A stretch of 64,000 bases of DNA, taken from Escherichia coli (GTDB lineage: Bacteria; Pseudomonadota; Gammaproteobacteria; Enterobacterales; Enterobacteriaceae). Positions 1 through 9,007 of the stretch are shown one piece after another (position 1 is the stretch's first letter; every line of letters starts with the position of its first letter). A program made the translations under genes and the position numbers. A model generated the notes under the pieces. It was not told where the DNA came from and did not search any database. It saw only the letters and a list, made by a program, of their open reading frames with translations. The stretch lies in assembly GCF_024700885.2 (NCBI RefSeq), contig NZ_CP117016.1, one strand, 5' to 3'.

Positions 1-18
1 CCGGAAAAATCAACCTTG

Positions 19-840
19 TTACCTAGTTACCTTTTTTAACTGCCGCTCAGCCCATGCTTCTTCAATATCAAACCGGGTCACCAGCGCATCATAGAATTTC
101 TTAACTGTTTTTTCCCATGACGCGCGTGTTATCTGGTTTGTCACCTCGCATATAGCATTAAATGCCTCCGTTGATGGTAGCCTTTCATAGCCACGACCAC
201 CACAACGCTGGCAGTCTCTGATAACAGGCATACCACGTTTTACCGACTCTTCACGATGAATGGCGACACCACGCCCACGGCAATCCTTACAGGCGGTGGA
301 AACCTCACCCTTCCCGCCACACTCCGGACAGGCAACTTTTACCACCTCCCTGACTTTTTTCCATTCTTCCCAGTAAGACGGATACACACCTTTCGTACAC
401 TTTGCCCATACCGGCGGCTTACCATCCGGATACTGGACCTTGTTTGTAAAAACTACGCTTTCAATAAATTTTTCCCCATAGCAACAAGGGCACAGCTTTT
501 TACTCGCTGCGCTGCGGGCATAATCCTCAAAAGCGCACGAAGCCATAATGCGCATCACTACCGGTTTTATTTCTGCCGGAAGTTTTCTCAACGCCGCCAC
601 ACGATCGCACCGACTGAGTGCATAATCTGCCAGTAATTCTGTTGCCCGCGCCCTGTCATTCATACTGATGCCCATCTTCCCCAGGAACGCAGAAAACCCC
701 ATCTCAGCCCGATTCTGTGTCATGCCCTGCGCGGCCATCACATCAGTGATACTCAGCGCATCTTTTGACGTTGAGGCCGATGCATCGGTCAGGCAAGGGG
801 ATTTTGGGGAGTAGTATTTCGGTAAATCTTCCAGTTTCAT
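19..840 (-). CDS. phage late-gene antitermination protein Q-like (QuuQ-type, zinc-finger)
   Basis: 273-aa ORF with repeated CxxCxGxG zinc-finger motifs (CPECGGKG, CKDCRGRG, CQRCGGRG); lies downstream of rusA and the DUF968 gene, the position of Q in lambdoid nin/late-control regions. Family call from memory. Confidence 0.55.
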   Translation of the reverse strand: MKLEDLPKYYSPKSPCLTDASASTSKDALSITDVMAAQGMTQNRAEMGFSAFLGKMGISMNDRARATELLADYALSRCDRVAALRKLPAEIKPVVMRIMASCAFEDYARSAASKKLCPCCYGEKFIESVVFTNKVQYPDGKPPVWAKCTKGVYPSYWEEWKKVREVVKVACPECGGKGEVSTACKDCRGRGVAIHREESVKRGMPVIRDCQRCGGRGYERLPSTEAFNAICEVTNQITRASWEKTVKKFYDALVTRFDIEEAWAERQLKKVTR

Positions 841-1211
841 TTTTTGACCTGCTCTTCATGCATTATGGGGTAAATCTTCACCCCCAGACGTCCACCAGAT
901 ACTGGCTGACCACGAACGATATTGATTTCATCAAACTGCTCATCGTCCATTAACACTCCCGCATGCGTCAGCGCATCCAGCGGTGCTTTCAGGATATTGT
1001 CCAGGTCGCGACGACGCTTATCCGGTGGCTCTGCAATCACCTTTATCGCCAGCCTTCCGGACAGGCTTAATTTCAGCCGCTGCTGGCGAACAATAAGCGC
1101 CACAGCACGGCGATAACGCTTTCCCTCCTCCGAGATAAAATATGTGCTGCCACGGCGTCGCCAGTAAGTGTTCACCGTCGGCGGGTAAGGTAAAACCAAA
1201 TCTATGAGCAT
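837..1211 (-). CDS. rusA: RusA-family Holliday junction resolvase
   Basis: 124-aa ORF with the RusA signature DKRRRDLDN and overall RusA-like pattern; start overlaps the upstream gene stop. Confidence 0.8.
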   Translation of the reverse strand: MLIDLVLPYPPTVNTYWRRRGSTYFISEEGKRYRRAVALIVRQQRLKLSLSGRLAIKVIAEPPDKRRRDLDNILKAPLDALTHAGVLMDDEQFDEINIVRGQPVSGGRLGVKIYPIMHEEQVKK

Positions 1212-1223
1212 CAGTCACCTCTT

Positions 1224-2273
1224 TTACCCAAGCACGCCAGTTGCAAAGGCGTGATCAAGAAAACGAAAAATTAAATCAACCTGAGAACCATGCTTTTCTT
1301 CGAACGCCAGCGGATCCGCATGAAGCTCGTTGTGATGCTCCCGACACAGCGGTAGCGTGAAAATATCGTGAGATTTTGTCCCCATTCCGCCCTGACCATG
1401 ACCAATCAGGTGATGGGGATCGTCGGCTGGCTTACCACAACACGCACACGGCTGTGTCTTCACCCAGCGTGTGTATTTCTCGTTAACCCAGCGGCGACGT
1501 TTAGGTCGTTTCATGAAAGATTCCGGAGACTCAGGATCAACGGCAATGCTGACCACCGTCTTTTCCTGTGGTGGGTTCTGTTGCTGGTGGGCGTGAGGCA
1601 GCGGCGCAAGATTTTTTGTGCGCTGTTTCAGTATGCTGGTGGCGGTCTGCTCTCCCGGTACGATGTCGCTTTCACGGTACATTGAGCGGATTTTTTCCGC
1701 ACGCAACCCCAGCGAACGACGTAATACCGCTTCCGGTAGCGCGTCCGCCACCTGATTGCGGACCGCCCACCAGGATAATTCAGCCAGAGATAATTCACGC
1801 TCCTGCGTACCGCTTATTGCGTGACCGATGACGTCAATCATCCATGCTGACAGGTTTTGATGAGCAACTTGCTCGAGTGATTCGGATGTCTGGTCACGCA
1901 GCTGGTTGTCGCAGTGCCAGCACAACACCATTGCGCCGGTACCATAACGGTGAATGACGGTTTCGCTGTGATGATAATCGCCGTGTGGCCACTGGCAGGA
2001 TTTAATATGGCGCAACAGCCAGTCAGACAATGCACCAGCACCACCAGCAGCACGAATCACCCGTGCGTTACTGAAAAACGGCAGCAATGTTTTGTCTTCC
2101 ACCAGCGGCTGGCGAGCGGCAGGAACGACCCCGGACGGCAGATTACGCATGCTTTTCGGTTCCGGCTCCACCAGTAACCGGGTATTGTGGAATACCGGCA
2201 TGGATTCACGGCCCGGCTTAACGATCACCAGCCCGAGTTCCGGTACCAGAACAGGTCGAAGTAATACCCGCAC
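1224..2273 (-). CDS. DUF968 (YdfU-like) prophage protein with C-terminal HNH-like Cys/His motif
   Basis: 349-aa ORF; C-terminus CACCGKPADDPHHLIGHGQGG...CREHHNELH resembles the HNH-like motif of the DUF968 family found next to Q in Qin-type prophages. Confidence 0.6.
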   Translation of the reverse strand: MRVLLRPVLVPELGLVIVKPGRESMPVFHNTRLLVEPEPKSMRNLPSGVVPAARQPLVEDKTLLPFFSNARVIRAAGGAGALSDWLLRHIKSCQWPHGDYHHSETVIHRYGTGAMVLCWHCDNQLRDQTSESLEQVAHQNLSAWMIDVIGHAISGTQERELSLAELSWWAVRNQVADALPEAVLRRSLGLRAEKIRSMYRESDIVPGEQTATSILKQRTKNLAPLPHAHQQQNPPQEKTVVSIAVDPESPESFMKRPKRRRWVNEKYTRWVKTQPCACCGKPADDPHHLIGHGQGGMGTKSHDIFTLPLCREHHNELHADPLAFEEKHGSQVDLIFRFLDHAFATGVLG

Positions 2274-2274
2274 G

Positions 2275-2664
2275 TTACCTCCAGATGCGTTGCTGGAATG
2301 TGCGGGATGGACGCGGTGGGCGTTCGGAGTAAGGCAATCTGACTGAGATTATCCAGTGACGGTAGTCGAGGCTAAGGGCTTTTTTAACCTCGTATCCGCG
2401 CCTGCGGTAACACTGAATTATCCATTCAGCCTGCTCTTCAGTGCATGGTGGATGCTGGAACCAGTCCGATTTGAATGCATGAAAACGCCGTCCGCACCTG
2501 CTGGCAAAGACGGCAGAATCATCAGAATTGTGTAATTTGGTATCGTGCGCCATCGGTTGTCTCTGCTGGCGCAGCAGGTGCCAGTTGTTCAGGCTGGCGT
2601 ATAAAGTATAAATAAACTGGTTCCAGTGTAAAGCCCCTACATTAATGGAATAAAAGTCAAACAA
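2275..2664 (-). CDS. hypothetical prophage protein (position of rem in Qin-like prophages); true start may be an internal Met
   Basis: 129-aa ORF directly upstream of and abutting the DUF968 gene; no recognisable motif. Confidence 0.3.
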   Translation of the reverse strand: MFDFYSINVGALHWNQFIYTLYASLNNWHLLRQQRQPMAHDTKLHNSDDSAVFASRCGRRFHAFKSDWFQHPPCTEEQAEWIIQCYRRRGYEVKKALSLDYRHWIISVRLPYSERPPRPSRTFQQRIWR

Positions 2665-2919
2665 CAGATTGTTGGGATAAACACAACGCTTATTATTAAA
2701 AGCGATTAGATAAATTAAATTTTAATGTTATGCAATTTTACCAGATCATCATAACATCTCGTTTGAAACCACCGAAACAACAACCATATCAATATTGATT
2801 ATGTTAAAGTGAGTAAATATGGAAAACAACAAATCTGCACATTACGCTCCTTTTTTATCTGTGATACTTTTTGTTTTATGCTGTGTGTGGGCATTATTTT
2901 TATAAAAATATTCACAGAT

Positions 2920-2943
2920 AAAATAAACCCGCCGAAGCGGGTT
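2920..2943 (-). terminator. rho-independent terminator at the 3' end of the hok transcript
   Basis: On the minus strand, hairpin AACCCGCTTCGGCGGGTT followed by a T-tract (plus strand aaaataaacccgccgaagcgggtt), about 70 nt downstream of the hok stop. Confidence 0.55.
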
Positions 2944-3011
2944 AAGTGCGGGTGCATTGAGGATGCCTGACACATCCGAGGTGGCGAGGGATTTCTCCCT
3001 CGCCGGGTCTC

Positions 3012-3167
3012 TTACTCCTCAGGTTCGTAAACTGTGAAGACAGCGACCTCCGTCTGGCCGGTTCGGATTCGTACCTCGCAGAGGTCTTTCCTCGTTACCA
3101 GTGCCGTCACTATGACGGTTAAACAGATGACGATCAGGGCGATTAACATCGCCTTTTGCTGCTTCAT
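3012..3167 (-). CDS. hok: Hok/Gef-family type I toxin (51 aa membrane peptide)
   Basis: Minus-strand ORF below the 60-aa cutoff of the ORF track; translation MKQQKAMLIALIVICLTVIVTALVTRKDLCEVRIRTGQTEVAVFTVYEPEE is essentially the HokD/Hok sequence as I recall it. Structured GC-rich 3' region and upstream leader present. Confidence 0.85.
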   Translation of the reverse strand: MKQQKAMLIALIVICLTVIVTALVTRKDLCEVRIRTGQTEVAVFTVYEPEE

Positions 3168-3424
3168 AGCCTGCTTCTCCTTGACCTTTCGGTCCGTAAG
3201 AGGCTAATCTCTATGTGTCGCATAGATATGGCCTCAGATTAATGTTAAACGTCTTGCAGGACGCGTAATGTTACCTGGGGCTTTTCTCTATCTGCCGTTG
3301 GTGTTCATGCCCGAGGCAGATAGCCTCAAGCACCCGCAGTCATTCTACTTAACTAAGATTTCCCCGCAAACCGTTTTTGTCCAGCACAATAAATATCCAA
3401 CTAAACCAATGGAGTTCGCTGTAT

Positions 3425-3604
3425 TTACCGCCAGTATTCAATGCACATGACCGCCATGAACACCCCTAAAAAAAGGGCATTTATATATCCAAATATTAAT
3501 ATCAAAACATCAACTTTTTCCATATACCTTGCTGTGAAGATGATGGGCATACATGATACGAACAACCAGAACGCAACAAACAAAAACTGCAATGCGTTTT
3601 TCAT
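3425..3604 (-). CDS. hypothetical small hydrophobic (membrane) protein
   Basis: 59-aa ORF from internal Met (MKNALQFLFVAFWLFVSCMPIIF...) in an AT-rich stretch; two predicted hydrophobic segments; no family assignment. Confidence 0.3.
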   Translation of the reverse strand: MKNALQFLFVAFWLFVSCMPIIFTARYMEKVDVLILIFGYINALFLGVFMAVMCIEYWR

Positions 3605-4144
3605 TATTCCTCCTACAATCAATGTGCAATTACATTTAAACACACCTCAATTTGGCCGGACATATAAATATCTAAACTAGAAAAAATCACTTACATAGCG
3701 TTACAAACTCTTTAGTCTAAAGGTTCATCGTAAAACATTCCCCATACTTATCAGTCCGTTCCGCGCCAGGTAGCTTATTGCCTTATCTGGCAACCTATAA
3801 TCAGGTTTCCGCTTTTTCAGTTGGCTGGTCGTTTAACCGACATAGTTAACCCATTAATCTAGTTGCCGGATGTTGGTGGATTTTCGCGTTTTAGTTGTTC
3901 ATAAAAGTGCACAGCTTTAACCAGTTCTTCTGATGTAACCAGGGCTGGTGAGGCAGTGAATAAGGCCTGAATTTGATAGTTCGGCCTGTCGTTACAATCC
4001 TCTTTTTTCGGTACATATTTCCAGTCAACAGACCACTACTTCTCCTGAAAGTCCGTAACGCCTTTTTTCACGTAGCGATATCGCCATGCCACTGGTTTTG
4101 CTTGCCCCGCCGTTTCATACCCTTCCTGATAATTAATCTCGCTC

Positions 4145-4319
4145 ATTCATCGCCCCACTCATCACAATATGCTTCGACCGGATTTTTTCCTGCTTCATAA
4201 TCATCACGCCATGCTTCAGCATCAGCAGCACTGCCACCACGTAACTCTGCATAGTCCATTAACAGTTCATGCCATTTTTCAAAACTGACGTTGTATTTAG
4301 TTGAACCAAAATCAGCCAT
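4145..4319 (-). CDS. hypothetical small acidic protein (58 aa)
   Basis: ORF MADFGSTKYNVSFEKWHELLMDYAELRGGSAADAEAWRDDYEAGKNPVEAYCDEWGDE; start overlaps the stop of the upstream 60-aa ORF; below the ORF-track cutoff. Confidence 0.3.
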
Positions 4320-4494
4320 TTTGCTCTTCCTCTTCGTCTTTTATTTCGTGATATGAGTAATTGCAGTAGTTAAAGAAAATACCTTTTGCTTCGTCATGTA
4401 TTTCATCAGGCGTCGCATCAGCATCCACTTCGAATTCATCCTCGAAATCTCCACCAGCCATTCCCGTTTCAATAATTATTTTGAACTTTCGCAT
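4312..4494 (-). CDS. hypothetical small highly acidic protein (60 aa)
   Basis: ORF rich in D/E (GDFEDEFEVDADATPDEIHDE...DEEEEQ); translationally coupled to the next small ORF. Confidence 0.3.
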   Translation of the reverse strand: MRKFKIIIETGMAGGDFEDEFEVDADATPDEIHDEAKGIFFNYCNYSYHEIKDEEEEQNG

Positions 4495-5001
4495 TTCACT
4501 ACCGCCCTTTCGGGTGGCCTCCTGCTGTTCTGAGGGTGCAGAAATCCCTCCGGTTAAGGATTAAATTTTTAACAGTGCTAAATTTAATTATTCAGTTTTG
4601 GATTTTGTCACCCTGCGTATCCGCGCTTTCCCGTTACGCTCAATCTGAATTAGCTTTTCTATATTTTTTCGCCTTTCCCGTTCCTCCTGGCGCAAGAGCC
4701 TTACATCATCTGCCAGTCTGGTTTCTCTTTTCGCCACAGAGAGCATCCAGTCAAATGGCTCCACAACTGCACCGCAGATTTTACAGCGGACCTGACGCTC
4801 TTTTTCGTCAACCCGGACAGAAGCGTGATGGCAATATGGTCTTTCCGATGGCTCATAAAGAAAATTAACCTGATTACGAGGGTCATCCTCTTTTATCGGA
4901 AATAAAACGATATTGCTTAACTAATCCTCTGGTTTTATTTCCATGCTCCTCTCCTTTGATGCGAATGCCAGCGGCAATTGAAGCCTGATAGCTAATTTCA
5001 C

Positions 5002-5424
5002 TCACAGTACCGCCTCCTGAAAATTACCCTGATAGAAAGCCAGTACACGCTGCATAGCTTCGCTCTTCCGGCACTCGCGACAGATTATATTCAGGCGCCT
5101 GTCGTAGCGGCGTATTTCTCCGTCTGGTAATGACCAGATTAGGTCCGGATCAACCGCAGATGGTTTCTTCGGCTTTGCCCTTGAGAGCTTTTTACGGGCA
5201 TTTTGCCAGTCCTTACGCGCCTGTTCAGACGGGAATAACCCGTAACCAGAGTTGTATACATCGCCACTGGCAACCAGCTCTCTGGCCAGAACGCTCATCA
5301 GATATCTTGTTGCCCCAGTTTTAGTTTCCAGTCGTCGTAACGTCTCGCGCCCACTCTGGCGTACGAGTTCAACAACCTGCCCTTTAATTTTTTCCCGCTC
5401 TTCTTGTGTAAAAACTTTTGCCAC
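5002..5424 (-). CDS. hypothetical prophage protein (140 aa)
   Basis: ORF immediately downstream of the replication gene in the same operon orientation; basic, with a CRECRK motif; no confident family. Confidence 0.4.
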   Translation of the reverse strand: MAKVFTQEEREKIKGQVVELVRQSGRETLRRLETKTGATRYLMSVLARELVASGDVYNSGYGLFPSEQARKDWQNARKKLSRAKPKKPSAVDPDLIWSLPDGEIRRYDRRLNIICRECRKSEAMQRVLAFYQGNFQEAVL

Positions 5425-5464
5425 AAGCCCTCCTGAAAATTACCTCATGACCAGAAATTAACAC

Positions 5465-6541
5465 TTACCCCCTGAAGCCCGGCGGAATTTCGTTATCCGG
5501 TTCAGAAATATGATTCACACAACGCTGGTTGTTCGTGCCGCTTACCGGGAGCAACCAGGGGTTCTCAAAATTCCGGTCCGGTCCAAAAAACGTCGTCGCT
5601 CGCTGAACAAATTCCGTTCCCGTTTTCCCGGTAGCCGCCAAGTATCTTGCGTAACGCCTCACGCCATCCAGCATGGCCTCTGGTGGCACCCCCTCGCGTA
5701 ATCTGGCCTTCCAGGCACTGAAAGCGGATTTCTTCGGGTTTGCTCCGGCACGCAACGGGTACTCCCGCCAGACCTGTTCGAACACATCCGGATAATCCAC
5801 TCGTCCCACAGACTGCCCGGTGTTTTCCGGGACTACCCGATCGGCTTCCCGCTGAATGGCGGAATCGGCTTCGGGCTGCTGCAGTTGGTGTGATTGCTCC
5901 GGCCTTGCGGTCATCACCTGCTGCACAGCGCCCGAATCGGCTTTCAGCGCATACGCTGAATCGGCTTCCGGTGTCGTGCCTGCTGGCTGACCAAGATTGA
6001 CGGTCTGAACATCCCCTGCCTGGTTCGTGGCGTTTTTTACGCCATGGACCATAGTGTTTTGATCTTCTTGATCTGTATCTTTATCTGTATCTTTATCTGT
6101 CGTGACTCGTCGTGACATGTGCGTGACATTTCGTGACGCGCCGTGACAATCGCCATTTTGTTCCCGCTTTCTTTCCCTCTCTCGCTGCGCCCTCTTGCGC
6201 TCTGCAGGAGATTTTGCGGTTTGCGAAATATTGCCGTTGTCCTCTTTAAGCACCTGGCGTTTTTCCCATCCAGTGATTAAATCACCATCAAGTACCCGCC
6301 CCTGCATCGTCTGCAAAATTGAATCAATTACCTCTTCTGTCACGTCGAGCGCACTTGCCAAATCTTCTGTCGTGACATCAATGTGACCTCGCGTGACATT
6401 TCGTGACGCGCTCACCAGGAGGTGGATATACACTGCCATCACTGTTGCAATTGGCTGCCCTGACACCCTGGCAATTGTTCGCCACTTAGGGTCATTTGGC
6501 ATGTCATGCCATAATCTGAGCCAGGCGTTAGCCATACTCAC
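5465..6541 (-). CDS. putative phage replication initiation protein (lambda O-like / YdaU DUF1376-like)
   Basis: 358-aa ORF downstream of the cro-like and YdaT-like genes; embeds two arrays of CGTGAC repeats at about 10-bp spacing, as lambda ori lies within O; contains a DKDTDKDTD linker repeat. Confidence 0.6.
   Translation of the reverse strand: MSMANAWLRLWHDMPNDPKWRTIARVSGQPIATVMAVYIHLLVSASRNVTRGHIDVTTEDLASALDVTEEVIDSILQTMQGRVLDGDLITGWEKRQVLKEDNGNISQTAKSPAERKRAQRERERKREQNGDCHGASRNVTHMSRRVTTDKDTDKDTDQEDQNTMVHGVKNATNQAGDVQTVNLGQPAGTTPEADSAYALKADSGAVQQVMTARPEQSHQLQQPEADSAIQREADRVVPENTGQSVGRVDYPDVFEQVWREYPLRAGANPKKSAFSAWKARLREGVPPEAMLDGVRRYARYLAATGKTGTEFVQRATTFFGPDRNFENPWLLPVSGTNNQRCVNHISEPDNEIPPGFRG
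6101..6147. repeat. iteron-like array: 5 x CGTGAC at 10-11 bp spacing (candidate phage ori)
   Basis: CGTGAC at 6101, 6111, 6122, 6132, 6142; preceded by tandem 12-bp repeat atctgtatcttt at 6071-6100. Confidence 0.55.
6371..6407. repeat. second iteron-like array: 4 x (C/T)GTGAC at 10-11 bp spacing
   Basis: Repeats at 6371, 6382, 6392, 6402; shares an identical 20-bp block gcgtgacatttcgtgacgcg with the first array (6121-6140 vs 6391-6410). Confidence 0.55.
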
Positions 6542-6606
6542 CTCTTTTGATACCGAATCTTTTTACTCACAAATTGCCGGAAGTGATCCGGTATGAATAT
6601 TGCGAG

Positions 6607-7032
6607 TCAATGCACAGCCACAATATTTCCTGCAGGGCCACCACGATTCATCTGGTTGAAACCAGCGATCGCCACTGCGACAAAATCATCAGCGTCTCTC
6701 ACCAGTCGTTCCCGCGTCTCCACTAGTTCCCGAAAATAGGCTGAGCTATGACTGCGCATTCGGGCCACCAGCAGAGGTGGCATTGCTTTTTCGATAGCTG
6801 GTAACAACGCCTGAATTTTTTTAACCGCATCAGGGGTGTCTTTCTCCACCCAGCGGAAAATTTTCTGAGTATTGCGAGCCAGGGCTTCCGGATGGCTGTC
6901 GTCATACAGTTCCGGGAACGTCATTCCCAGCTCGAAATACGCTTTGGTAATTTTCACAGCCGGTACTTTTTCGCCGTCCGGATGCGCCCAGGCATTCATC
7001 GCCATGCGGATGTGTTCATGCTTGATTTTCAT
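6607..7032 (-). CDS. YdaT-like prophage protein
   Basis: 141-aa ORF MKIKHEHIRMAMNAWAHPDGEKVP... matching my recollection of Rac YdaT; follows the cro-like gene with ATGA overlap. Confidence 0.6.
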   Translation of the reverse strand: MKIKHEHIRMAMNAWAHPDGEKVPAVKITKAYFELGMTFPELYDDSHPEALARNTQKIFRWVEKDTPDAVKKIQALLPAIEKAMPPLLVARMRSHSSAYFRELVETRERLVRDADDFVAVAIAGFNQMNRGGPAGNIVAVH

Positions 7033-7283
7033 GAATCAACTCCCATCAGCTTTTTCGTAGTAGTTTTATTCCTGCCAATAGTTAAAATTGCATCGGCAGA
7101 AAATAATCCGTTTGATGCAAGAGCGATTTTTTCAGCGTAATTTGTTTCGCCGGTATATTCTGTGCGAGGCAATTTTCCGTTATCCATCCATTTATAGATT
7201 GCTCTTTGGCTGACACCACAAACGTCGGCCACAACAGCAACGCGAACAGTTTTGATTACATCTTCAAGTGTTTTCTGGTTCAT
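7029..7283 (-). CDS. Cro-like / YdaS-like HTH regulator
   Basis: 84 aa from internal Met (MNQKTLEDVIK...); HTH-like segment VCGVSQRAIYKWM; divergent from the DicA-like repressor gene. Start chosen to leave a 79-bp operator region. Confidence 0.55.
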   Translation of the reverse strand: MNQKTLEDVIKTVRVAVVADVCGVSQRAIYKWMDNGKLPRTEYTGETNYAEKIALASNGLFSADAILTIGRNKTTTKKLMGVDS

Positions 7284-7362
7284 ATCACCCTCACAATGTG
7301 AACTTTGAGTACATGCTATAACAGAACTGACAGTACATTCAAGAGCGAATATCATTGAACTT

Positions 7363-7782
7363 ATGGTTCATGAAGATAAAGCGCGTAAAGAGTTCGCCAG
7401 TAGGCTTGCGCTAGCCTGTGAAAACGCTGGTTATGAACAACATGGAAGGCAGGCAGAAATTGCCCGTCGAATGAAATTAACACCAAAAGCGGTTAGCAAA
7501 TGGTTTAATGGCGAAACAATTCCTCGCCGGGAGAAATTAAGGGAATTAGCAACACTAATAGGAACAACACCAACCTATCTTTTGGGAGAGGATACAGAAG
7601 AAAGTGGACAGGTACGTTTCTATCAGGAGTTAAATCCAAGACAAAAAATCATCATTGACCTTCTGGACGAGCTCCCTGACAGTGAGACAGATGAACTTTT
7701 AAAAACTCTTGAAGAGAAAAAACAGAAGTACAATGCAATTTACGAAGAGTTAGCACGAAAGAAAAAACAAAAAGCCTCTTAA
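7363..7782 (+). CDS. DicA/RacR-like XRE-family HTH repressor (immunity repressor)
   Basis: 139-aa ORF with N-terminal HTH and acidic C-terminal helix; heads the ydfABC-dicF-dicB module as dicA does in Qin. Confidence 0.6.
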   Translation: MVHEDKARKEFASRLALACENAGYEQHGRQAEIARRMKLTPKAVSKWFNGETIPRREKLRELATLIGTTPTYLLGEDTEESGQVRFYQELNPRQKIIIDLLDELPDSETDELLKTLEEKKQKYNAIYEELARKKKQKAS

Positions 7783-8079
7783 ACCAGCATAAATCCGGTA
7801 GCGCCTTCCTCCGGGTTTGTGCTTCACTTTATCCCATCTCATTTTTTTACACACAAAATGTACTAAAAGTACTTTACAACAATGAACGCAAAGTACATTA
7901 TATACCTACCACCCACCCCGCCCCACAGAATGCAGGGCAATACTTCGAGTTACCAGGCAGTGGTCAGGGGTTAAGTAGCCAGCCCGAGGCGTAAGAACAT
8001 GACGGCAGGGTTCAACTTTAATAACTATGCAGCAGGTTTTTGTTCCGCTACCCCGGCGTTAAGGGGAAATGAGGTCAGC

Positions 8080-8235
8080 ATGGATACTATCGATCTTGGC
8101 AACAACGAATCTCTGGTGTACGGCGTGTTTCCCAACCAGGACGGCACCTTCACCGCAATGACGTATACCAAAAGCAAAACGTTTAAAACCGAATCTGGAG
8201 CGCGTCGCTGGCTGGAAAGAAATTCAGGTGGGTGA
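8080..8235 (+). CDS. ydfA: YdfA-like small prophage protein
   Basis: 51-aa ORF MDTIDLGNNESLVYGVFPNQDGTF... with good SD (aaggggaaatgagg); matches my recollection of Qin YdfA. Confidence 0.55.
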   Translation: MDTIDLGNNESLVYGVFPNQDGTFTAMTYTKSKTFKTESGARRWLERNSGG

Positions 8236-8236
8236 T

Positions 8237-8368
8237 ATGGATTTCGACACAATCATGGAAAAGGCTTACGAAGAATACTTCGAAGGCCTTGCCGAAGGCG
8301 AAGAAGCTCTCAGCTTCAGCGAATTTAAACAGGCGCTTTCCAGTTCGGCAAAATCTAACGGCTGATAA
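8237..8368 (+). CDS. ydfB: YdfB-like small prophage protein
   Basis: 43-aa ORF MDFDTIMEKAYEEYFEGLAEGEE... immediately after ydfA (1-bp gap). Confidence 0.5.
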
Positions 8369-8394
8369 GCGAAACAGCACCGCGAGGAATCAGC

Positions 8395-8613
8395 GTGCAG
8401 AAACGAGAACCCGTCATCATCGCGCCAGACTATACCGATGATGAACTTTATGAGTGGATGCGCCAGAAAATTAATGCAGCGCAGGATCTGAAATGGGCTA
8501 ATGAAGCCAGGGCTAAGCAGGCTGAAAATCTGTCCGCTCTGGAGCAGGATATCACCAATCTGGAAAAAGCAGCGGCATTAAGCATTGCCAGAATGATTAC
8601 ATACCCGCGTTAG
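8395..8613 (+). CDS. ydfC: YdfC-like prophage protein
   Basis: 72-aa ORF MQKREPVIIAPDYTDDELYEWMRQKINAAQDLKWANEARAKQ...; order ydfA-ydfB-ydfC as in the Qin dicB operon. Confidence 0.55.
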   Translation: MQKREPVIIAPDYTDDELYEWMRQKINAAQDLKWANEARAKQAENLSALEQDITNLEKAAALSIARMITYPR

Positions 8614-8954
8614 TAGCTAATCAACAAAGCTAAGGTTAGTAATTAAGGAGTTCTCCACGGGTGAGGTGGAGTGCGTGCGCCGGACACGGGTGAGCATCCG
8701 GCACTGACAGTTTACTGAAAGGATATTTCCCTGAAAAGTCAGACCATAACGCGAAAGCGCACGGCGAGGTAGCTGGTTCATAGATAGCCTGTCGTTAAAT
8801 TTTCGTCGACCGTGCGCTTCCGGTTGTGGCAATCCGCGAAATGGCGCGGCGGTAAGTATGGCGGGGTTATTCCTTCCCCCGTTGAGGACACCGGGTTGTC
8901 AGGTTGACCATACGCTTAAGTGACAACCCCGCTGCAACGCCCTCTGTTATCAAT

Positions 8955-9007
8955 TTTCTGGTGACGTTTGGCGGTATCAGTTTTACTCCGTGACTGCTCT
9001 GCCGCCC
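8955..9007 (+). ncRNA. dicF: DicF small RNA (ftsZ-targeting sRNA processed from the dicB operon transcript)
   Basis: 53-nt stretch tttctggtgacgtttggcggtatcagttttactccgtgactgctctgccgccc followed by TTTTT; matches the DicF sequence as I recall it and sits between ydfC and dicB. Confidence 0.75.

Follow-up and report, generated by a model that had tools for sequence, protein, structure and literature searches.

A probable bipartite replication origin formed by two helically phased hexamer arrays within the replisome-organizer gene of an Escherichia coli lambdoid prophage

In phage lambda the replication origin, ori-lambda, lies in the middle of gene O and consists of iterons, four to six of them in lambda and Stx phages, together with an AT-rich tract (PMC7466680). 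In phage SPP1 the direct repeats and the DNA-unwinding element (DUE) of the origin oriL likewise lie within a replication gene, gene 38, and are bound by its product, gp38/G38P (PMC6316719, PMC5737612). Of 314 lambdoid phages, 34 encode an O-type protein only, without a helicase or loader, and how they replicate is 'not yet understood' (PMC12315714). Here we describe a replication locus in a 64,000-nt stretch of Escherichia coli DNA (assembly GCF_024700885.2, contig NZ_CP117016.1), referred to below as the window. Positions ∼6020–6410 of the window are probably the replication origin of a lambdoid prophage, embedded in the gene for its own initiator. By analogy, it is probable that the design follows the principle known from phage lambda, in an undescribed two-part (bipartite) layout.

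The initiator gene occupies positions 5465–6535 on the minus strand, with an ATG at 6535 and 356 codons (the RefSeq start; an open reading frame (ORF) finder extends the frame to a GTG at 6541, giving 358 residues). It contains two arrays of the hexamer CGTGAC, which reads GTCACG on the coding (minus) strand. Array B (6101–6147, minus strand) comprises five copies of GTCACG 10–11 bp apart, and its codons specify the disordered linker CHGASRNVTHMSRRVTT. The plus-strand starts, at 6101, 6111, 6122, 6132 and 6142 (spacings of 10, 11, 10 and 10 bp), agree exactly with the five copies at 10–11-bp spacing described in the first-pass annotation of this DNA. Array A (6371–6407, minus strand) had been credited with four copies; three are exact, with plus-strand starts at 6371, 6392 and 6402 (GTCACG at 6402–6407, 6392–6397 and 6371–6376), and the fourth turns out to be a variant that matches at five of six positions (TGTGAC, or GTCACA on the coding strand, at 6382–6387). 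The spacings in array A are 10, 10 and 11 bp. A 20-bp block, gcgtgacatttcgtgacgcg, said to be common to both arrays, is indeed present at 6121–6140 and at 6391–6410, an offset of 270 bp. In addition, a lone hexamer in inverted orientation (6339–6344, plus strand), absent from the first-pass annotation, is found 27 bp downstream of array A in the direction of the gene, where it codes for the DVT of ALDVTEE; it lies within a 12-nt inverted match to positions 6106–6117.

The clustering of these hexamers is pronounced, as 9 of the 35 CGTGAC copies in the window fall inside 307 bp. When the window was scanned for any hexamer present in at least four copies with a spacing of 9–12 bp, array B was the sole periodic array detected, and 100 Markov-1 shuffles, which served as the control, gave no array of at least four copies.

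Array B adjoins an AT-rich, strand-asymmetric tract (6057–6100), the proposed DUE, whose coding strand reads (GATAAAGATACA)n and contains two GATC sites. Three tandem 12-mers, TCTTTATCTGTA, are found at 6066–6101, and their minus strand encodes TDKDTDKDTD, in line with the DKDTDKDTD-encoding tandem repeats already noticed in the first pass. The 40-mer from 6057 (6057–6097) is the least stable of positions 5000–7600 and of the gene (dG of −44.7, compared with a window mean of −58.2 and a standard deviation of 5.1); it is 73% AT, and its plus strand is 71% pyrimidine. The 12-bp GATAAAGATACA (DKDT) repeat is present in two to five copies among 47 E. coli alleles (loci L007–L086), and the length of the AT-rich tract is therefore polymorphic. 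The 40 bp that follow array B rank in approximately the top 5% of their own gene for AT-richness in 11 of 12 family loci. One of the three 12-mers, GATCTGTATCTTT, shows two mismatches to the oriC 13-mer consensus, a weak resemblance on which we do not rely.

On the far side of the AT-rich tract relative to array B lies an inverted repeat (6021–6051), a candidate third origin element with 13-bp arms, 11 of 13 Watson–Crick pairs and an AAAAA loop. A hairpin that pairs at 11/13 positions would arise in 130 bp with a probability of 0.003. Along the gene, array B comes first, then the AT-rich tract and then the palindrome. Shigella phage 75/02 Stx retains the palindrome (2554–2582 of locus L002); its loop-closing pair is A:T in place of T:A, a compensatory change, and it has C-G where the palindrome of the window has its single C-A mismatch. 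At that mismatched pair E. coli alleles carry two polymorphisms, C>T at gene nt 495 and A>G at gene nt 517, either of which would restore pairing. Two relatives (L001 and L095) have C6..G6 palindromes at the equivalent place, within codons for a recurrent PPxPPEGG peptide. Apart from these and the palindrome common to the window and 75/02 Stx, most of the short hairpins that relatives have downstream of array B do not exceed chance.

Along its entire length the initiator matches phrog_3729, 'replication initiation protein' (E = 5.5e-258). There are also matches to PHROG replisome-organizer families at E-values of 4e-6 and 2e-4, and the NCBI family name is 'phage replisome organizer'. A Pfam search gave no significant domain and no match to Phage_rep_O, the lambda O family, so the earlier description of the gene as O-like does not hold; the product is probably a replisome-organizer/DnaD-like protein instead. 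Its parts are a predicted DnaD-like winged-helix N-terminal domain (N-domain), a helical C-terminal domain (C-domain) and a DnaT-like tail. In an AlphaFold2 model of the N-terminal structure built from 60 relatives, residues 11–90 have a predicted local distance difference test (pLDDT) score above 90 and form three helices, a loop (48–57), a helix-turn-helix (58–79) and a beta wing (80–90); a basic helix (112–128) and then a disordered stretch follow. Fold comparison places this winged helix closest to the N-terminal domain of DnaD (DnaD-NTD), the replication initiation and helicase-loading adaptor of Firmicutes. A PDB sequence search with an N-domain profile returned no match. Array A codes for the end of helix 3 and loop 48–57, ahead of the helix-turn-helix (peptide ASRNVTRGHIDVT). 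Array B and the DKDT repeat code for the disordered stretch (pLDDT below 50) between the winged-helix domain with its basic helix and the C-domain. The lambda-like placement between the two domains of the initiator thus applies to array B, which lies in the linker with the AT-rich tract beside it, but not to array A, which is inside the codons of the DNA-binding domain.

The last 24 residues of the protein, GTNNQRCVNHISEPDNEIPPGFRG (codons at 5468–5539, minus strand), closely resemble the very C-terminal end of DnaT, a primosomal protein of the host, and constitute a candidate host-recruitment motif. This tail matches PDB entries 6aep, 2ru8 and 9zbt at E-values of 0.003–0.07 and aligns to positions 156–179 of the 179 positions of the NCBIfam DnaT model. 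The initiator ends in ..VNHISEPDNEIPPGFRG, compared with ..INSVSEPDNHIPPGFRG for DnaT in the same three PDB entries, and its last 20 residues are EPDNEIPPGFRG. The resemblance may reflect mimicry by which the phage protein engages the host replication-restart or helicase-loading machinery. The same DnaT-like tail is also present in 75/02 Stx, a phage that possesses a DnaC-like gene, and the literature on DnaT that was consulted, including a 2026 preprimosome paper, does not state the contacts made by the last 20 residues of DnaT.

Compared with ori-lambda, the locus is similar in that it is located within the initiator gene, in codons for a flexible inter-domain linker, and that repeats, an AT-rich strand-asymmetric tract and a palindrome succeed one another along the gene; in ori-lambda, too, a palindrome comes after the AT-rich tract. 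Both are transcribed from an early operon, and in both the N-domain and the origin are exchanged as one module and the C-domain as another. The differences concern the components. The initiator is not an O homologue, and in place of the 19-bp dyad-symmetric iterons of lambda there are 6-bp direct cores every 10–11 bp, the repeat unit being at most a 20–21-bp double unit without dyad symmetry. Furthermore, a second array with the same core is found in the codons of the DNA-binding domain, and no P-type loader gene comes after the initiator. Since the protein family, the type of iteron and the P loader all fail to agree, this system does not belong to the lambda O family.

With SPP1 oriL the locus shares direct repeats and an adjoining AT-rich element in the organizer's own gene, bound in SPP1 by G38P, and an initiator without an AAA+ domain. 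Sequence similarity between the two proteins is at the noise limit, however, and SPP1 has a distant second origin, oriR, as well as the loader and helicase genes 39 and 40 downstream, whereas here a single gene holds both arrays, separated by 270 bp, and the genes after it include neither a loader nor a helicase. A distant second origin of the oriR type was considered and rejected, as the 64-kb window contains no other array. Judged from the protein matches, membership in the SPP1-type replisome-organizer family is plausible. Arrays of initiator sites adjoining tandem AT-rich repeats are also a property of iteron plasmids (RepA, pi and RepE) and of oriC; recognition by a winged helix is plausible, and the three 12-mers are similar in style to the three 13-mers of oriC. 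The initiator nevertheless has no homology to Rep or DnaA, and the locus has no DnaA box. Three properties distinguish it from both ori-lambda and SPP1, namely the short core with a helical period, the fixed second array in DNA-binding-domain codons and the conserved (GATAMA)n tract.

The arrays are conserved beyond E. coli. Pseudomonas phage phita81A and Aeromonas phage pAEv1818 encode N-domains that are 75–76% identical to that of the E. coli protein and C-terminal halves that are unrelated to it, and both carry GTCACG arrays at the two equivalent gene positions. Neither the hexamer nor its phase changes across the three genera, whereas the 4–5-bp spacers and the encoded peptide vary. Array B has five copies in E. 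coli, three in Aeromonas and four in Pseudomonas, and always stands directly before the GATAAAGATA... tract. Array A is found at the matching gene position in Pseudomonas, Aeromonas, Ralstonia and metagenomic relatives. The lone inverted hexamer is kept in the Pseudomonas phages; in Aeromonas an inverted copy occurs slightly further downstream, and in Ralstonia phage Firinga the matching position holds inverted copies of that phage's core. Absence of the repeats from homologous genes, which the first-pass annotation had named as evidence against an origin, is therefore not what we observe, since the arrays are present in homologues of three genera with the same core.

More distant relatives use other cores: (C/G)GAACGC(A) is found in a podovirus from Manatee Spring and in metagenomic loci L092, L094 and L095, and GCAACG in Firinga and cyanophage Cy-LDV1. 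Microcystis phage MACPNOA1 returns to GTCAC. In nearly every case the two arrays of one genome share their core and are 200–300 bp apart. Loader and DnaB-type helicase genes are located downstream in Firinga, Cy-LDV1, L092, L093 and L094. A first scan of viral contigs, with the E. coli N-domain as the query, returned 80 loci with an identical protein, which supplied allele variation only and no added diversity. A second scan yielded 36 further distinct loci. Under a strict exact-hexamer criterion, array A was detected in 29 of them, array B in 31 and both arrays in 26, compared with one such array in the 90.6 kb of DNA flanking these loci. In most of the 31 loci with array B, the array is followed by CCA(GATAAA/GATACA)n, whatever the core. 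Phage 75/02 Stx has only the C-terminal half in common with the E. coli protein and a different N-domain, but its layout is comparable: AAGGGGCT occurs twice in N-domain codons with 11-bp spacing, and twice in inverted orientation just before a purine-rich (GAACAG)n tract.

Two further loci deserve a separate description. Positions 2083–2754 of L093 (Logan contig SRR26888840_42408) look mosaic, with an N-domain loop of the NADERG class and GAACGC-like words upstream, and with an array B of three GTCAC(A/G) copies ahead of (GAGACA)n. In Pseudomonas phage PACT201 (∼1968–2500 of L088) the initiator gene is unannotated, frameshifted and interrupted by stops, and both GTCACG arrays are intact; the reading frame may be a pseudogene or may reflect sequencing errors.

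A repeat within a coding sequence could be without any function at the DNA level and could simply reflect repeated peptide motifs or neutral slippage or duplication in a low-complexity linker. Consistent with such an account, the 20-bp block common to arrays A and B does not change frame between them and encodes ASRNVT each time, and the neighbouring 12-bp repeat varies in copy number as slippage-prone tracts do. Only this block, however, keeps its frame from one array to the other. The exact GTCACG copies are in frames 2, 0 and 0 in array A and in frames 1, 2, 0, 2 and 0 in array B, and in the Pseudomonas relative the frames are 2, 0, 1, 0 and 0, 1, 2, 0. Depending on the frame, the copies encode SR, VT, HM or other residues. 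Because the hexamers occupy all three reading frames, the repeat is a feature of the DNA and not of the peptide, and the repeated-peptide account foreseen in the first pass is contradicted both by these frames and by the different peptides found in different genera. Moreover, hexamer and phase are retained across genera while spacers, copy number and peptide are not, the layout persists with a different core in other clades, and flanking DNA is almost free of arrays (one in 90.6 kb). A peptide repeat is rejected on the frames and neutral slippage on the cross-genus conservation, so that this explanation is largely refuted and we regard it as extremely improbable. Alternatively, the arrays could be binding sites for the initiator or another regulator that serve as operators or roadblocks, in autoregulation or in handcuffing-type control of copy number and incompatibility, with the real origin elsewhere. 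In favour of this, the gene that holds the sites is transcribed, some 270 bp separate array A from the AT-rich tract, array A lacks its own unwinding element, and the iterons of iteron plasmids commonly double as control sites. Against this, the 64-kb window has no other periodic array that could act as the origin, and array B is always paired with an AT-rich tract and often with a palindrome, neither of which regulation needs. A purely regulatory role thus appears unlikely to us; a regulatory role that coexists with origin function is possible.

The arrays could also be read by a different system altogether, such as a host factor, a packaging or recombination site, an anti-phage or superinfection-exclusion target, or a signal in the mRNA. 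A Ren-like exclusion gene directly downstream would fit this idea, and the initiator as the binding protein is a prediction only. Yet the genes next to the initiator differ completely among the E. coli, Aeromonas, Pseudomonas and Ralstonia loci while the arrays and their core track the N-domain clade, which makes such a reader unlikely, and the core changes independently of the host, contrary to what a conserved host factor would lead one to expect. Direct repeats with a helical period and without hairpin potential are atypical of RNA signals, and pac and cos sites are normally near terminase genes. Taken together, we give this account a rather small chance.

Several observations weigh against assigning origin function to the arrays. 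Microcystis phage Mwe-JY25 has no visible array, and L093 and some metagenomic loci are without a recognisable array A. The linkage between arrays and N-domain is in part trivial because array A encodes part of the N-domain. Among E. coli alleles, four singleton single-nucleotide polymorphisms fall in hexamers; spacers are hit as well, and the hexamers are not clearly spared. The iterons of lambda and of plasmids measure 17–22 bp, and those of plasmids are intergenic, unlike the direct, helically phased 6-bp core with a 10–11-bp period seen here. No DnaA box was found in positions 5300–6800 at one mismatch or less. As to the protein, the match to Pfam Phage_rep_org_N (PF09681) is borderline, with an independent E-value of 0.25 when the full protein is searched and 0.034 when the N-domain is searched by itself, although it extends over model positions 1–119 of 121; 1 of the 60 relatives scores at 1e-3 or below. 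Finally, in the searchable literature we found no experiment on a family member that demonstrates binding, unwinding or autonomous replication.

The peptides encoded by the arrays are instructive in their own right. In family proteins P0002–P0120, the array A peptide (e.g. RNVT, NATERG or NANERG) reappears in the array-B-encoded linker of the same protein, and this motif is followed by DKDK, DTDT, ETET, DSDS or DADA runs and often then by PPxPPEGG. The elements of the origin are therefore legible in the protein sequence alone. A second repeat, GAATCGGCTTC, is present in four copies at positions 5840–5971 of the window; on the coding strand it reads AAGCCGAT and starts at gene nt 575, 599, 671 and 695. 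All four copies are in one frame and encode (P)EADS/EADR motifs in a linker ahead of the C-domain. Phage 75/02 Stx carries the repeat twice, with a difference that is synonymous, and this points to a motif at the peptide level.

Upstream of the initiator gene are genes for a DicA-like repressor, a cro-like protein and a YdaT/cII-like protein, and downstream are a Ren-like gene, small ORFs and nin-region genes (DUF968/NinG-like, RusA-like and Q-like). No helicase, primase or loader gene was found in positions 1–5464, downstream of the initiator; the window carries a one-gene replication module of the type counted in the lambdoid phage survey (PMC12315714). A scan for promoters gave no signal above chance. 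One of the small ORFs (4143–4319) contains three GAAGCA copies with 21-bp spacing (∼4170–4222, minus strand), the only further periodic match in positions 3001–9000, which may be due to chance. Near-identical initiator genes are present in E. coli phages vB_EcoS-689R5, Tritos, Evi and others, and the gene is found at a coverage of at least 80% in 1646 of 5426 complete E. coli genomes (∼30%). RefSeq labels the protein (WP_001262357.1) 'hypothetical protein' and annotates no origin, and GenBank phage records name it variously 'DNA replication protein O', 'Primosomal protein I' and 'replisome organiser'. No paper that describes this origin was found in the searchable literature, and the Eru papers on the replication regions of non-lambdoid Stx phages mention neither origins nor repeats.

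If positions ∼6020–6410 do act as the origin, initiation might proceed as follows. The N-terminal winged-helix domain would bind the GTCACG hexamers, array B providing the core initiator-binding sites and array A auxiliary ones. With a hexamer every 10–11 bp, the bound subunits are proposed to share one face of the helix, so that an oligomer could assemble on array B. Array A, 260–270 bp away, would carry a second complex, and contact between the two complexes, with looping of the DNA between them, is possible. Under negative supercoiling, the resulting strain would melt the adjoining (GATAAAGATACA)3 tract at 6057–6100, which the GC-rich palindrome at 6021–6051 would bound. Because the phage has no gene for a helicase or loader downstream, the host helicase machinery is proposed to be recruited by the initiator's C-terminal half, a DnaD-domain-like helical bundle with the DnaT-like tail. 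Since the origin is placed in an early rightward-type operon (cro-like, YdaT/cII-like, initiator), transcription would cross it, as at ori-lambda. The first half of this scheme follows experimentally established precedents, those of ori-lambda with O and of SPP1 oriL with G38P.

More tentatively, the locus could be the type example of an uncharacterised and widespread bipartite phage origin. Such an origin would combine two phased arrays of the same hexamer at fixed positions in a replisome-organizer gene with a (GATAAA/GATACA)n tract for unwinding or single-strand binding, with a one-gene replication module in E. coli, and with a DnaT-mimic tail that recruits the host primosome or DnaB–DnaC. 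This combined proposal is possible but on balance doubtful. In a bipartite origin of this sort, with one array within the codons of the DNA-binding domain, part of the protein sequence would be dictated by the protein's own binding site. If true, the bipartite origin and its DnaT mimic would explain the replication of the 'O-only' lambdoid phages (34 of 314; PMC12315714).

For a very common type of prophage, the location of the origin would offer a handle on replication in situ, on the dynamics of induction and on lateral transduction. Two phased hexamer arrays with the same core, followed by (GATAMA)n, would provide a signature for finding the origins of this family across Proteobacteria and cyanophages, and GTCACG, GAACGC and GCAACG represent a natural specificity series for recognition by winged-helix initiators. 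How lambdoid phages with a one-gene replication module load the host helicase would also become testable.

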